Assembly (NCBI RefSeq): GCF_003018255.1
Contig: NZ_CP027440.1
Source of the DNA: Escherichia coli
GTDB taxonomy: Bacteria > Pseudomonadota > Gammaproteobacteria > Enterobacterales > Enterobacteriaceae
Length of the DNA: 64,000 nucleotides
Strand: one strand, 5' to 3'
Part shown: positions 16,285-52,141 of the stretch, piece after piece
Layout of the letters: the number at the start of each line of letters is the position of its first letter
How positions within the stretch are numbered: position 1 is the stretch's first letter
Program-made: the position numbers and the translations under genes
The notes under the pieces: model-generated
The model's input: the letters and a program-made list of their open reading frames with translations, nothing else
Databases searched by the model: none
Told to the model about the DNA's origin: nothing

Positions 16285-22348
<6,064 letters not shown>

Positions 22349-22384
22349 TTAATAATAAGTAATGTTAGCGCTGTAAATGTAGAT

Positions 22385-22400
22385 TGCAGGGTTCGTGCCA
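22385..22400 (-). promoter_or_regulatory. sigma-54 (-24/-12) promoter of astCADBE
   Basis: Minus strand reads TGGCACGAACCCTGCA, with GG and GC at the consensus spacing, about 75 bp upstream of astC. Confidence 0.75.
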
Positions 22401-22756
22401 GCCAGTGATAAAAGTGCATAAATCGCGGAGGCTAACTGGAAATCAAGGAGTTATAACCAAACATATGCATTTAAAGTGCATATAAAGTGAATACGTTTGC
22501 GATGTGGGTGAATAAAAAGAATAAAAAACGCAATGTTATGCAGAAGTGAAATATAATTCTGAAATTGTGATCATTGACGAAATTTACTGGAAATTACTGC
22601 GCCATTCTGACGCAACGCGCACCAAAAGCGGGCATTTTTTGCGCCATCGTTGACATCATTAACAACCATCGATCAAATCACTTAACAACAGGCGGTAAGC
22701 AAAGCGAAATTCTGCTACCATCCACGCACTCTTTATCTGAATAAATGGCAGCGACT

Positions 22757-23563
22757 ATGAAATTTGTCTCTTTTAATATCAACGGCCTGCGCGCCAGACC
22801 TCACCAGCTTGAAGCCATCGTCGAAAAGCACCAACCGGATGTGATTGGCCTGCAGGAGACAAAAGTTCATGACGATATGTTTCCGCTCGAAGAGGTGGCG
22901 AAGCTCGGCTACAACGTGTTTTATCACGGGCAGAAAGGCCATTATGGCGTGGCGCTGCTGACCAAAGAGACGCCGATTGCCGTGCGTCGCGGCTTTCCCG
23001 GTGACGACGAAGAGGCGCAACGGCGGATTATTATGGCGGAAATCCCCTCGCCGCTGGGCAATGTCACCGTGATCAACGGTTACTTCCCGCAGGGTGAAAG
23101 CCGCGACCATACGATAAAATTCCCGGCAAAGGCGCAGTTTTATCAGAATCTGCAAAACTATCTGGAAACCGAACTCAAGCGTGAAAATCCGGTGCTGATT
23201 ATGGGCGATATGAATATCAGTCCTGGCGACCTGGATATTGGCATTGGCGAAGAGAACCGTAAGCGCTGGCTGCGTACCGGAAAATGTTCTTTCCTTCCGG
23301 AGGAACGCGAATGGATGGAGAGACTGATGAGCTGGGGATTGGTTGATACCTTCCGCCATGCGAATCCGCAAACAGCCGATCGTTTCTCATGGTTTGATTA
23401 CCGCTCAAAAGGTTTTGACGATAACCGTGGTCTGCGCATCGACCTGCTTCTCGCCAGCCAACCGCTGGCAGAATGTTGCGTAGAAACCGGCATCGACTAT
23501 GAAATCCGCAGCATGGAAAAACCGTCCGATCACGCCCCCGTCTGGGCGACCTTCCGCCGCTAA
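22757..23563 (+). CDS. xthA: exodeoxyribonuclease III
   Basis: ORF 22745-23563; start placed at ATG 22757 ([14 protein letters not shown]...) giving 268 aa. Confidence 0.95.
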
Positions 23564-29794: not shown

Positions 29795-31102
29795 ATGAAA
29801 CGTGTTTCTCAAATGACCGCGCTGGCAATGGCTTTAGGGCTGGCTTGCGCTTCTTCGTGGGCCGCTGAACTGGCGAAGCCTCTTACACTTGACCAGCTTC
29901 AACAACAAAATGGCAAAGCGATAGATACTCGCCCCAGCGCGTTTTATAACGGCTGGCCACAAACCTTAAATGGCCCTTCTGGTCATGAACCTGCCGCCTT
30001 AAACCTCTCTGCTAACTGGCTCGACAAAATGAGCACCGAACAGCTCAACGAGTGGATCAAGCAACATAACCTGAAAGCCGATGCTCCGGTGGCGCTGTAC
30101 GGTAATGACAAAGATGTCGACGCCGTCAAAAAGCGACTGCAAAAAGCAGGTTTTACGCATATCTCCATTCTGAGTGACGCGCTAAGCGAACCTTCCCGTC
30201 TGCAAAAACTGCCGCATTTTGAGCAGCTGGTTTATCCGCAATGGCTGCACGACCTGCAACAAGGTAAAGAGGTTACGGCGAAACCTGCCGGTGACTGGAA
30301 AGTCATTGAAGCGGCCTGGGGCGCTCCTAAGCTTTACCTTATCAGCCATATTCCCGGCGCTGACTACATCGATACCAACGAAGTGGAAAGCGAACCGCTG
30401 TGGAACAAAGTTTCTGATGAACAACTAAAAGCGATGCTGGCAAAACACGGCATTCGCCATGACACCACGGTCATTCTGTACGGGCGTGACGTATACGCTG
30501 CAGCGCGTGTGGCACAAATTATGCTCTACGCTGGCGTGAAAGATGTCCGCCTGCTGGACGGCGGCTGGCAAACCTGGTCCGACGCGGGACTGCCCGTTGA
30601 GCGCGGAACGCCACCGAAAGTGAAAGCGGAACCGGATTTCGGCGTGAAGATCCCGGCACAACCGCAACTGATGCTTGATATTGAACAAGCGCGTGGACTG
30701 CTGCATCGCCAGGATGCATCGCTGGTGAGCATTCGTTCGTGGCCAGAATTTATCGGTACGACCAGCGGTTACAGCTATATTAAACCAAAAGGTGAAATAG
30801 CCGGAGCACGTTGGGGACACGCTGGTAGCGACTCGACGCATATGGAAGATTTCCATAACCCGGATGGCACCATGCGTAGCGCCGATGATATTACCGCTAT
30901 GTGGAAAGCATGGAATATCAAGCCAGATCAGCAAGTTTCATTCTACTGCGGCACCGGCTGGCGCGCGTCAGAAACCTTTATGTACGCACGCGCAATGGGC
31001 TGGAATAACGTCTCCGTTTATGACGGTGGCTGGTACGAATGGAGCAGCGATCCAAAAAATCCGGTAGCAACCGGTGAACGCGGCCCGGACAGCAGTAAAT
31101 AA
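29795..31102 (+). CDS. ynjE: periplasmic multi-domain rhodanese (thiosulfate sulfurtransferase) YnjE
   Basis: ORF 29780-31102; start placed at ATG 29795; signal peptide; rhodanese active-site loop CGTGWR. Confidence 0.85.
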   Translation: MKRVSQMTALAMALGLACASSWAAELAKPLTLDQLQQQNGKAIDTRPSAFYNGWPQTLNGPSGHEPAALNLSANWLDKMSTEQLNEWIKQHNLKADAPVALYGNDKDVDAVKKRLQKAGFTHISILSDALSEPSRLQKLPHFEQLVYPQWLHDLQQGKEVTAKPAGDWKVIEAAWGAPKLYLISHIPGADYIDTNEVESEPLWNKVSDEQLKAMLAKHGIRHDTTVILYGRDVYAAARVAQIMLYAGVKDVRLLDGGWQTWSDAGLPVERGTPPKVKAEPDFGVKIPAQPQLMLDIEQARGLLHRQDASLVSIRSWPEFIGTTSGYSYIKPKGEIAGARWGHAGSDSTHMEDFHNPDGTMRSADDITAMWKAWNIKPDQQVSFYCGTGWRASETFMYARAMGWNNVSVYDGGWYEWSSDPKNPVATGERGPDSSK

Positions 31103-34042: not shown

Positions 34043-34050
34043 GACAATTG

Positions 34051-34082
34051 TGCCGGATACAGCGCAAACGCCTTATCCGGCC
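34051..34082. repeat. REP palindrome (gdhA-topB intergenic)
   Basis: TGCCGGATACAGCGCAAACGCCTTATCCGGCC. Confidence 0.7.
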
Positions 34083-34118
34083 ATAAAAATCTTCAGTATC
34101 AGATGGTTGAAAGAACCT

Positions 34119-36074
34119 TTATATTATCACTCCATTGCCCGCCTCTTCTGATGGCGGGCTTTTTTTCGGCGCTCTCTTGCGTGGCGAATCCTTTTTCTTC
34201 CCTTCTCCACCGCCGGGAGCCATTATTCCCCGAAACTGCCTTACCGACGTGCGCTTTGCCTGATCAATCAACTGGTACAATGTCCCCACCAGCGGCTGCA
34301 TAAAGTCCTGATAGCGACACTGCTTTTCGCTGATTTGCGTCAGCACCGATTCCCAGTGCGCGGTCATGTCCGGTCGCGTCGCCATTTCTGGCAGCGAATG
34401 GAATAGCGCTTTTCCGGCGTCGGTGGAGTGGATATAGCGCCCTTTTTTGGTCAGGAAGCCTCGCTTGAACAGCAGTTCAATAATCCCGGCGCGAGTCGCT
34501 TCTGTCCCCAGACCATCGGTCGCACGAAGGATCTTTTTCAGATCTTTGTCCTGCACAAAACGTGCTATCCCGGTCATCGCTGAAAGCAGTGTTGCATCGG
34601 TAAAATGGCGCGGCGGCTGGGTTTGCCGCTCTACCACTTCACCTTTTTCACACAGCAACTCATCGCCTTTCGCCACCACAGGCAGCGGCGTGCCGTCGTT
34701 TTCTTCATCGCGCTCTTTGCTGCCTAACAGTGTGCGCCAGCCTGCTTCAGCAAGAAAACGGGCTTTAGCGACAAATTTGCCTTTGGCAATGTCCAGTTCG
34801 ATAACACACTTGCGGAACACCGCATCCGGGCAGAACTGCATCAAATACTGACGGGCAATCAGGTTATAGACCTTCGCTTCGTTCTCCGTCAGGTTGATCG
34901 CAGAACTCCGTGCGGTCGGGATGATGGCGTGGTGCGCATCGACTTTTTTGTCATCCCAACAGCGGTTGCGTATATCTGGATCGACCACTGGCTGCGGCAA
35001 CAGATCTGGTGCATGAACGCTGATAGCATTCATCACCGCGTGGCGTCCGGCAAAATGTTCTTCTGGCAAATAGCGGCAATCGGAACGCGGATAAGTGATT
35101 AGCTTGTGCGTTTCGTACAGCTTCTGGCAGATATCAAGCACGTTCTGCGCGCTCAGACCAAAACGTTTAGCCGCTTCAATCTGCAACGCCGAAAGCGAAA
35201 AAGGCAGCGGCGCGGATTCTGATTCCCGTTTATCGTTATAGCTGGTGACAATAGCTGGTTGACCACTAATGCGGTTAACCACATGCTCCGCCAGTGGACG
35301 ATGTAATAAGCGCCCTTCTTCATCCTGGTACGGTTCACACGCTTCGCTCGGTTGCCAGATAGCGGTAAACCGCTCATCGGCAGGTGTCACGATATGTGCT
35401 TTGACTTCAAAGAAGTCTTTCGCCACGAAGTTTTCAATCTCTTCGTCGCGGCGCACCACCAGTCCGAGTACGGGCGTCTGCACGCGTCCCACGGAAAGCA
35501 CGCCCTGATAACCGGCATTGCGACCGAGAATGGTATACGCACGGGTCATATTAATGCCGTACAGCCAGTCAGCTCGCGCACGCGCCAGTGCAGAAACGCA
35601 CAGCGGTACAAACTCGCTATTGGAGCGAAGACGATCGATCGCCCGCTCAACCGCCTGCGGGTTCAGGTCGTTTATCAAACAACGCTGTACCTGCTGGCGC
35701 TTTTCCGGTGCCAGTTGCAGGTAGTCCAGCACTTCATCCACCAGCAGTTGCCCTTCGCGATCCGGGTCTCCGGCGTGAACGATTTCGCTGGCTTCATGCA
35801 GGAAGCGTTTGATGACATTAAGTTGTTTAGTCACGGAGGGTCGGGGCTGTAATTGCCACTTTTCCGGGACAATCGGCAAATCCGCAAGATTCCAGCGCGC
35901 ATAGCGGCTGTCGTAGGCGTCTGGCTGCGCCTGCTCAAGCAGGTGACCGATACACCAGGTCACCACCTGACCATTACCGCACTCGATAAAGCCATCGCCT
36001 TTCCGGTGCGGTTTAGGCAGGACATCAGCAATGGCGCGCGCCAGACTCGGTTTTTCGGCAATAAACAACCGCAT
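34119..36074 (-). CDS. topB: DNA topoisomerase III
   Basis: ORF 34119-36131; start placed at ATG 36074 ([16 protein letters not shown]...); Toprim/type IA topoisomerase. Confidence 0.9.
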
Positions 36075-41640: not shown

Positions 41641-41800
41641 TATTAGTTGGATTCATCTCTGGCCTACATTTCCTCAATGACATTGTAGGCCAGGTAATAC
41701 TTGTTAGTGTTGCATTTAACCTACTCGCAGCTAAAACACGACATCCGAACAAGTCTATTTGCCCTCCCTTAATAACAGGCTTAAATACTAGACAACTCAT

Positions 41801-42073
41801 TCACTTAAACATGGCAATAGGCTTTGCTGAGATACCAAAATCTTCTTTTAACTGTTGTTTGCTCTTCATGACCATCTGACCATTTGTGTCAATTGTCATA
41901 TGCTGTGCTTCGGTATTATTACGGGCTTGCCACAGCATCACCAGTTGCAGGCAGTTCTCTTTTTGTTCCTCGGTCAACGCAACGCCATCAGGCCATTTCC
42001 CCAGTTCAACGGCGGTCGACAAACGCTGGTATACCTCAGGCGTCATGCTGTTGATAATGTCATCAAGATTCAT
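41801..42073 (-). CDS. yeaC: DUF1315 protein YeaC
   Basis: ORF 41801-42118; start at ATG 42073 (MNLDDIINSMTPEV...); 90 aa. Confidence 0.8.
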   Translation of the reverse strand: MNLDDIINSMTPEVYQRLSTAVELGKWPDGVALTEEQKENCLQLVMLWQARNNTEAQHMTIDTNGQMVMKSKQQLKEDFGISAKPIAMFK

Positions 42074-46573: not shown

Positions 46574-46889
46574 AATTAATCATTCCTTAAACAAATGTTT
46601 AGCGGGCGACAAAGTTTACCCGTCAATACATCGAAACCCAACCTTTTTACGTTTTCATTTTTTATAGTAACTGTTTAATTTTCCTGACGCAGATGACACC
46701 ACTCTTACAGCCAAATGAATTTAGCGTTACTGGCGACCCTGGTCTTTACATTAATTATGCAAAATTTATGGATGAGTTGTTGATATGCCATTGAAATTAA
46801 GAAAGCCGTGCAGGCAAGTTTTCCATTTGCCATCTACGCTTAATTTTGAAGGTGTATCACCGGGCACGTTGTTCTCATCGTCGATAAAA

Positions 46890-46905
46890 TGGCATGAGAG
46901 TTGCT
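46890..46905 (+). promoter_or_regulatory. sigma-54 (-24/-12) promoter-like element upstream of yeaG
   Basis: TGGCATGAGAGTTGCT: GG and GC at the consensus spacing, about 100 bp upstream of the yeaG ATG. Confidence 0.6.
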
Positions 46906-47008
46906 GTGTTTTAGCAAGAGACGTCGTTCAGTTTACCTCTTCCGGGAGCCTCTACTATTCATATGAACGGCTCTTAACCTGTGCTAAAAAACGAAAGGAC
47001 GGCATACC

Positions 47009-50485: not shown

Positions 50486-51961
50486 ATGATTCGGTCAACA
50501 CGTATTTCCCTGGGGTTATTCTTTAATTATTTTTTATCGTTAACGAAAATTGATCCTGGTCAAAACTATATATCTCTGCCATCAATAAAATCCAGCACTC
50601 ACATTGCTCTCCTTTTTATGGCTTCTATGGGTACACAAAAATTAAAAGCTCAAGGCTTTTTTATTTTCAGCTTATTGCTGACGTTAATTTTATTTTGCAT
50701 TACTACCTTATATAACGAAAACACGAATGTAAAACTCATCCCACAGATGAATTACCTGATGGTTGTTGTGGCTTTGTTTTTCCTTAACGCCGTCATTTTC
50801 CTTTTCATGTTAATGAAGTATTTCACTAACAAACAAATTTTACCAACACTCATTTTAAGCCTTGCATTTTTAAGTGGCCTTATCTATTTAGTTGAAACCA
50901 TTGTAATTATCCATAAACCAATCAACGGCAGTACACTGATCCAGACAAAGTCGAATGATGTTTCTATTTTCTATATTTTCCGCCAACTCAGTTTCATTTG
51001 TTTAACCTCGCTGGCGCTCTTTTGTTATGGGAAAGACAACATCCTTGACAACAATAAGAAGAAAACTGGCATTCTGTTGCTGGCGCTGATTCCTTTTTTA
51101 GTTTTTCCCCTTCTGGCACACAATCTGAGCAGTTATAACGCTGACTATTCTTTGTATGTCGTCGATTACTGTCCGGACAACCATACTGCGACCTGGGGAA
51201 TCAACTATACAAAAATATTGGTTTGTTTGTGGGCATTTTTACTGTTCTTTATTATCATGCGTACACGATTAGCCAGCGAACTATGGCCGTTAATAGCATT
51301 ATTATGTCTGGCATCGCTATGCTGCAACTTACTTCTACTGACTCTGGATGAGTATAATTACACCATCTGGTATATCAGTCGCGGGATTGAAGTTTCCAGT
51401 AAACTGTTTGTTGTGTCTTTTCTGATTTATAACATTTTTCAGGAACTGCAACTCTCCAGCAAACTGGCAGTTCATGATGTACTGACCAATATTTATAATC
51501 GGCGCTACTTTTTCAACAGCGTAGAGTCATTATTGTCGCGACCTGTTGTTAAGGACTTTTGTGTCATGCTGGTTGATATTAATCAGTTCAAACGCATCAA
51601 TGCCCAATGGGGACATCGTGTGGGTGATAAAGTGCTGGTATCAATTGTCGATATTATCCAGCAAAGCATCCGCCCCGATGATATTTTAGCGCGACTGGAG
51701 GGTGAGGTGTTTGGCTTGCTATTTACCGAACTCAATAGTGCCCAGGCAAAAATCATTGCGGAACGTATGCGTAAAAATGTCGAACTCCTGACCGGCTTTA
51801 GTAACAGATATGATGTTCCTGAGCAAATGACCATCAGTATTGGCACGGTTTTTTCAACGGGTGACACACGTAATATCTCGCTTGTCATGACGGAAGCAGA
51901 TCAAGCCTTACGCGAAGCGAAAAGCGAGGGGGGCAACAAAGTGATTATTCATCATATTTAA
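50486..51961 (+). CDS. yeaI: membrane-bound degenerate GGDEF protein (EGEVF variant) YeaI/CdgI
   Basis: 491-aa ORF; N-terminal multi-TM domain, C-terminal GGDEF fold with RLEGEVFGL in place of GGDEF; AT-rich. Confidence 0.85.
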   Translation: MIRSTRISLGLFFNYFLSLTKIDPGQNYISLPSIKSSTHIALLFMASMGTQKLKAQGFFIFSLLLTLILFCITTLYNENTNVKLIPQMNYLMVVVALFFLNAVIFLFMLMKYFTNKQILPTLILSLAFLSGLIYLVETIVIIHKPINGSTLIQTKSNDVSIFYIFRQLSFICLTSLALFCYGKDNILDNNKKKTGILLLALIPFLVFPLLAHNLSSYNADYSLYVVDYCPDNHTATWGINYTKILVCLWAFLLFFIIMRTRLASELWPLIALLCLASLCCNLLLLTLDEYNYTIWYISRGIEVSSKLFVVSFLIYNIFQELQLSSKLAVHDVLTNIYNRRYFFNSVESLLSRPVVKDFCVMLVDINQFKRINAQWGHRVGDKVLVSIVDIIQQSIRPDDILARLEGEVFGLLFTELNSAQAKIIAERMRKNVELLTGFSNRYDVPEQMTISIGTVFSTGDTRNISLVMTEADQALREAKSEGGNKVIIHHI

Positions 51962-52141
51962 GTGCAAAAATATTCAGAGCCATGCTTTTTGCGTGGCTTT
52001 TGCATACAATTTATTACTATTACCCCTAAATTTCCCCTCCCCAGCGGCGCAGAGATGAGTATAATTAGCGCCCCTGTGCCAGGCCGCAATCGAACTTTAT
52101 CTGGTTTTCTCGTTTCACTAACCGAAGGAGTGCCATTTATC

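Follow-up and report, generated by a model that had tools for sequence, protein, structure and literature searches.

The sigma-54 promoter of the astCADBE operon, astCp2, is already known and represents a well-studied textbook case: promoter, sigma factor and activators have been characterized from 1999-2002 onward, and several genome-wide studies have confirmed them anew, leaving little discovery value in the promoter itself. A sigma-54 ChIP-seq peak, termed OS17, was mapped upstream of astC with the minus-strand motif CTGGCACGAACCCTGCA; the start predicted for it is 62 nt away from the gene, and its flag "C" denotes a promoter (astCp2) experimentally confirmed in EcoCyc (Bonocora 2015, Table 1; PMC4591121). 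In vitro, gSELEX peaks for the RpoN holoenzyme and for NtrC were found within the astC/xthA spacer, and astC was listed as one of the few RpoN promoters with experimental confirmation (Shimada 2021). An NtrC ChIP-seq peak was identified at astCADBE, with Kiupakis & Reitzer 2002 cited for "direct binding" (Brown 2014), and an astCp-lacZ fusion is responsive to the Ntr system. ArgR, which bends DNA by 70-90 degrees, further induces the sigma-54 ast operon in the presence of arginine as an accessory, non-essential factor (summarized in PMC3037356). In addition, RpoS dependence of ast has been documented and was seen in rich medium.

The homologous site of Salmonella, TGGCACGAATGCTGCAAT, is bound by sigma-54, and astCABDE is a sigma-54-dependent operon of the NtrC class (Samuels 2013). 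Further points of comparison are provided by two other groups of regulatory regions. The glnHp2 promoter resembles ast in combining a weak sigma-54 promoter with upstream NtrC sites and an architectural bending protein in the intervening loop. However, glnHp2 requires IHF between enhancer and promoter, whereas the architectural factor described for ast is ArgR, a contrast that has been drawn explicitly in a preprint (IHF for glnHp2, ArgR for astCp), and the ast enhancer is unusually distant (about 230-250 bp). The operators of arginine biosynthesis (argF, argI, argECBH, carAB and others) share the same 18-bp ARG box motif with ast. They consist of two strong boxes that are 2-3 bp apart (a 39-bp operator), overlap the promoter and mediate repression.

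The locus analyzed here is the divergent xthA-astC intergenic region of E. coli, contained in a 64-kb stretch of the E. coli chromosome (the window). The longest open reading frame downstream on the minus strand begins at 22312 and encodes AstC (21092-22312); it is followed by astA, astD, astB and astE, the last of which ends at 16285. The astCADBE operon thus extends over 16285-22312 (minus strand), as deduced from the open reading frames of the window and the RefSeq annotation of a 99.7%-identical genome. The 901 bp surrounding the promoter element are present with at least 95% identity in 5,424 of 5,426 complete E. coli genomes, with annotated xthA and astC on either side. Flanking genes, operon, distance to astC and the 17-mer CTGGCACGAACCCTGCA are all identical to those of astCp2 in K-12 (Kiupakis & Reitzer 2002; OS17), so that the same element is found here in another strain. 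K-12 MG1655 differs from the window by eight changes in the 444-bp intergenic region, comprising substitutions at 22367, 22423/22424, 22548, 22562, 22615 and 22703 and a 1-bp deletion near 22461; none of them falls inside the 16-mer that forms the element. Among 5,423 E. coli genomes, no more than 8 carry the 66-bp core-promoter allele (22360-22425) at 99% identity or more, the rarity of the allele being due to the SNPs at 22367 (+8) and 22423/22424 (-49/-50), and the nearest genome is that of strain 2017.09.02CC from Viet Nam.

On the minus strand, reading from 22400 to 22385, the window carries the 16-mer TGGCACGAACCCTGCA, whose GG (-25/-24) and GC (-13/-12) doublets are spaced by exactly 10 bp. 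Compared to the consensus TGGCAC-N5-TTGCW, 10 of 11 specified positions agree, the single mismatch being a C instead of a T at -15. An earlier note on this DNA had described a near-perfect -24/-12 element at this site, about 75 bp upstream of astC, and this description proved accurate: the final base of the 16-mer is separated from the astC ATG (22312) by 72 nt, and the element is located on the astC strand and points toward astC. The interpretation of the element as the sigma-54 promoter of astCADBE is supported by the 17-mer shared with OS17 and by the predicted start. Placed 12 nt past the C of the -12 GC, this start (+1) is expected at 22374, and the resulting 62-nt leader to the ATG equals the distance between transcription start site and gene given by Bonocora (2015) for OS17/astCp2. 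The leader (22313-22373, minus strand) contains the ribosome-binding site GAGGTCGCT ahead of the ATG. The 80-species alignment described below further revealed TTAAC (from +23 onward) and TTATTTA, both located ahead of the ribosome-binding site, as conserved leader blocks within 22313-22352. Rfam yielded no RNA family matches in the intergenic region or the astC leader.

By itself, the motif is weak evidence and statistically not compelling. The exact pattern TGGCAC-N6-TGCA occurs once in the 64-kb window, with a chance expectation of 0.26 per window and at least one match in 23 of 100 shuffled sequences, and if one mismatch to TGGCAC-N5-TTGCW is permitted, seven hits are obtained compared to 3.6 expected. 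Where the element lies, how it is oriented and how well it is conserved raise it above chance. The astC loci of 80 other Enterobacteriaceae species were fetched and aligned, and TGGCA(C/T)G...TGCA was found to be kept in all 81 sequences at a distance of 71-76 nt from the ATG, with 20 variants of the spacer between the fixed -24 and -12 blocks. Fixed blocks separated by a variable spacer are the pattern expected of selection on sigma-54 recognition.

Beyond the element, the alignment shows discrete conserved blocks that are separated by variable DNA. Proceeding toward astC, these blocks are two conserved GC-spaced elements at about -260 to -224, AAATTTCG-N6-GATCACA at -211 to -192 (22566-22585, minus strand), CAGAATTATATTT at -187 to -175, TG(A/C)ATAA at -168, TATTCACTTT-TATGCA at -119 to -103, TG(A/C)ATA at -95, TAAC-N4-TTGAT at -79 to -67, TTTATGCA at -49 to -42 (22416-22423, minus strand; perfect in 82% of the 80 species) and, finally, a near-invariant stretch from CTGGCTGGCACG through TGCAATCTACATTTACAG at -30 to +4.

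These features can be combined into one explanation, in which the element is astCp2, the sigma-54 (RpoN) promoter of astCADBE, activated by NtrC through looping, assisted by an ArgR-induced bend and overlapped by a sigma-S-type -10 element. The probability of this reading as a whole is estimated at roughly 93%. In this model, sigma-54 RNA polymerase would sit on the -24/-12 element (22400-22385) as a closed complex. Upon nitrogen limitation, phosphorylated NtrC would occupy two adjacent weak enhancer sites located approximately 230-250 bp upstream (22598-22634), contact the polymerase through DNA looping and spend ATP to open the promoter, and transcription would start near 22374 and proceed through the 62-nt leader into astC. 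ArgR-arginine would occupy the ARG boxes that lie between about -185 and -90 in the AT-rich loop and, by bending the DNA, raise expression further, which would account for arginine-specific superinduction. An IHF-induced bend at -73 would likely assist loop formation alongside ArgR, and a sigma-S-type -10 at the start site would provide stationary-phase expression from nearly the same point. In K-12, whose core is identical, sigma-54 occupancy, NtrC binding and dependence on NtrC, ArgR and RpoS have been demonstrated; occupancy and genetic dependence are taken to extend from K-12 and Salmonella to the present strain, given the agreement of the sequences. The exact coordinates of the NtrC sites and ARG boxes, the position of the sigma-S -10 and the likely IHF bend at -73 are predictions from motif and alignment.

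The DNA upstream of the element had also been described as AT-rich, and indeed the region 22440-22700 exhibits 36.8% GC compared to 50.1% in the window, which places it among the lowest 2% of 261-bp windows. TGAATA/TGCATA hexamers, noted before as repeats in this region, are enriched as well, with five occurrences compared to 0.72 expected, a number reached in none of 500 shuffles. The "GCACCA motifs" mentioned alongside them were overstated in the plural: one exact GCACCA is present (22619-22624, plus strand), the others being two GCGCC relatives. Taken together, GCACC/GCGCC occurs three times in 22440-22700 (0.66 expected, P=0.018).

A scan with the NtrC consensus TGCACCA-N3-TGGTGCA (14 positions) identified two adjacent NtrC-like sites within this region on the minus strand: site 1, TGCCCGCTTTTGGTGCG, at 22618-22634 (centre -252; 10 of 14 positions) and site 2, TGCGTCAGAATGGCGCA, at 22598-22614 (centre -232; 11 of 14 positions). 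Two such matches upstream of astC compare to 0.18 expected (P=0.017), and with a spacing of 20 bp they are situated on the same helical face. Both predicted sites are weak. Across species, site 1 has a mean of 10.09, the top score of any position in the region, and site 2 reaches 9.12, compared to a positional background of 5.48 (sd 1.06), with its GC dinucleotides 13 bp apart being conserved. One caveat stays with these coordinates. Converted to the window, the published NtrC ChIP peak covers approximately 22327-22407 and lies on the promoter instead of the predicted NtrC sites, which are located approximately 250 bp upstream (Brown 2014). The peaks of the same study for nac, ddpX and yeaG likewise coincide with the sigma-54 motif positions of Bonocora (2015), and the offset is therefore probably a matter of resolution or looping.

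ARG boxes are less easily recognized in such DNA. Consensus counting upstream of astC gave five hits compared to 2.2 expected (P=0.08), without enrichment over AT-matched shuffles. As this approach failed to separate ARG boxes from the AT-rich background, a matrix was trained on the box pairs of ten K-12 operators (carAB, argF, artJ, artP, argA, argG, argR, argD, argECBH and argI). The boxes extracted are those of the classical operators; single boxes range from 7.8 to 22.1 bits and pairs sum to 26-40 bits. With this matrix, the highest-scoring single box upstream of astC is TCAGAATTATATTTCACT at 22545-22562 (minus strand, centre -179.5; 13.7 bits, window p 1.6e-5), which is strong only in Escherichia; elsewhere, the full box is not conserved (median 0.8 bits). 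Next to it lies an ARG-box-like element around TGCATAACATTGCG at 22527-22544 (minus strand, centre -161.5; median 6.7 bits). Closer to the promoter, a cluster of three overlapping ARG boxes was found at 22465-22503 on the minus strand (centres -120.5, -109.5 and -99.5), the core of which is ATTCACTTTATATGCACT at 22492-22475 (centre -109.5; 11.6 bits, window p 4.7e-5). The only ARG box with robust conservation is the one at -109.5, whose median is 11.6 bits and which reaches 6 bits or more in 91% of species, and the boxes at -120.5, -99.5 and -161.5 show moderate conservation.

A canonical pair of two strong boxes was not detected in the ast region by the matrix scan. The best pair (22492-22454) sums to 14.3 bits (window p=1.6e-5), which is still above AT-matched shuffles (P=0.025), and this and the other best pair (12.8 bits) remain so low because the partners at the canonical offset of 20-21 bp are weak (2.7 and -0.9 bits, respectively). 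The suggestion of the earlier note that the hexamer repeats resemble ARG-box half sites can thus be upheld insofar as single boxes within the score range of genuine operators are present inside 22440-22700, but not in the sense of a strong canonical pair. Between species, TGCAT and TGAAT interchange at the same columns, with TGCAT of E. coli being replaced by TGAAT in many genera, which fits predicted ARG half sites. As judged from scores and alignment, ARG boxes are present at ast and selected, in an arrangement unlike a repressor operator. In contrast to the biosynthetic operators, the boxes at ast are located 90-185 bp upstream, their partners are weak and ArgR activates; the arrangement agrees with ArgR acting from upstream in an architectural and activating capacity. 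Together with the published evidence for NtrC and ArgR, the NtrC-like sites and ARG boxes inside 22440-22700 support the dual nitrogen/arginine control of the arginine succinyltransferase pathway that had been expected for this region.

Between the ARG boxes and the promoter, the conserved block at -79 to -67 contains a perfect IHF core, AATCAAGGAGTTA (consensus WATCAANNNNTTR), at 22441-22453 on the plus strand, equivalent to positions 1832111-1832123 of K-12 (NC_000913.3). In the window, perfect IHF cores occur three times, which equals the chance rate; therefore, the probability of finding one within the loop of roughly 190 bp is approximately 0.01. Across the 80 species, the core scores a mean of 8.95 of 9 and is perfect in 95%, its four unspecified bases (N4) vary and the W position alternates between A and T only. 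The position of this predicted core is equivalent to that of the IHF site required at glnHp2. For the block TTTATGCA further downstream, three roles are conceivable, namely as an A/T-rich 5' arm belonging to the IHF site, as an ArgR half site or as an upstream contact point of polymerase; as a full ARG box it is poor (median -1.4 bits across species), and it fits no matrix well. No report of IHF at ast was found in a search that did not extend to Kiupakis & Reitzer 2002, Lu & Abdelal 1999 or databases, and the site may already be known. The conserved IHF-type core is possibly the sole new detail of the ast control region. Tentatively, an unreported conserved IHF site might exist at 22441-22453, perhaps extending to TTTATGCA, and the loop of approximately 240 bp might then owe its shape to two bends, a fixed one made by IHF and an arginine-dependent one made by ArgR, and not, as commonly portrayed, to ArgR substituting for IHF; this proposal is held to be doubtful.

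The sigma-S-type -10, a CRP-like half site and the IHF-type core are elements that the earlier note did not contain. The predicted sigma-S-type -10, C-TACATT at 22376-22382 (minus strand), matches CTAYRYT, is perfect in 89% of species and overlaps the sigma-54 start region. Transcription from it would begin near 22368-22370, some 5 nt past the sigma-54 start, and this overlap would explain why conservation extends past the -12 element. The CRP-like site TTCGTCAATGATCACA is part of the conserved block at -211 to -192 and agrees in 7 of 10 positions, with a perfect TCACA half; as the best CRP match reaches only 7 of 10, a role of CRP at this site is kept as a possibility. Lu and Abdelal are said to have described CRP binding at Salmonella ast in 1999. 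A scan for sigma-70 promoters upstream of astC returned nothing relevant. TTGATT together with TTTATGCA was considered as a -35/-10 pair and rejected, as no hexamer with the key A2 and T6 is present at a spacing of 17-19 bp.

The good, conserved sigma-S-type -10 at the start site raises the question of whether sigma-54 might bind to its site without promoter action, the operon being transcribed only from the overlapping sigma-S/sigma-70-type promoter under the influence of ArgR and CRP. Such an arrangement could account for the RpoS dependence of ast in rich medium and for the low activity of astCp2 in reporter contexts, and for many of the 135 sigma-54 ChIP sites of E. coli no productive activity is known. 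However, this particular site is marked as experimentally confirmed, ast is NtrC-dependent and, in Salmonella, sigma-54-dependent, and conserved NtrC-like enhancer sites are located upstream. Moreover, sigma-54 and sigma-S promoters are not mutually exclusive, and both are described for ast in the literature. Binding without promoter function is therefore considered improbable.

Even less probable is the idea that some of the conserved upstream DNA works for xthA, the divergent gene, instead of astC. With its start at 22757 on the opposite strand, xthA requires a promoter of its own, and the conserved block CTGCTACCATCC at 22706-22735 (plus strand) contains what resembles a sigma-S -10, some 30 nt ahead of the xthA ATG; this block is probably the xthA promoter. 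It lies beyond the NtrC sites, however, and the elements between 22385 and 22634 are oriented and spaced relative to astC, so that an xthA promoter would supplement the main explanation but not replace it. Least probable of all is a chance match in intergenic DNA, with the AT-rich region representing generic promoter or nucleoid-protein-bound DNA devoid of specific NtrC or ArgR sites: the expected motif frequency and the ARG-box counts, which do not exceed those of AT-matched shuffles, would allow for it, but the invariant blocks around a variable spacer in 81 of 81 sequences, the discrete upstream blocks that stand out from variable flanks and the published ChIP and gSELEX occupancy in effect refute it.

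A close counterpart of the ast control region described here is that of Salmonella Typhimurium (Lu & Abdelal 1999; Samuels 2013). Both share the sigma-54-bound site upstream of astC, the dependence on NtrC and sigma-54 and the conserved blocks, and they differ in the spacer bases and in the sequence of the NtrC region.

Additional sigma-54 sites were encountered elsewhere in the window. The sequence ATGGCATGAGAGTTGCT at 46889-46905 (plus strand) is OS18, a sigma-54 site known from the literature that lies upstream of yeaG (ATG near 47008); with it, the window holds a second genuine sigma-54 promoter of the NtrC class. Another sequence, TGGCACAAATTATGCT at 30510-30525 (plus strand), coincides in position with IS23, a published intragenic sigma-54 site within ynjE; as K-12 reads GTGGCGCAGATTATGCT there, IS23 of the present strain is closer to the consensus. 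Compared to K-12, two stretches are missing, namely ynjI, of about 1.3 kb, at approximately 34044-34143 and the entire ydjE-ydjL cluster, of about 9.2 kb, at approximately 41646-41802, each being replaced by 100-160 bp. Consequently, astC and yeaG are 24.5 kb apart here and 34.7 kb apart in K-12. The strongest ARG-box pair of the window according to the matrix is predicted at 51940-51978 (AGTGATTATTCATCATAT tta AGTGCAAAAATATTCAGA; 21.2 bits) and is located in the intergenic region between cdgI (yeaI) and dgcJ (yeaJ), not at ast.

A genuine sigma-54 promoter and its regulatory context could thus be recognized by the earlier reader from raw sequence. For the ast control region of the Enterobacteriaceae, the cross-species footprint provides a clean site-by-site map, and the conserved IHF site, if true, would slightly revise the accepted model of ArgR-assisted looping at astC.
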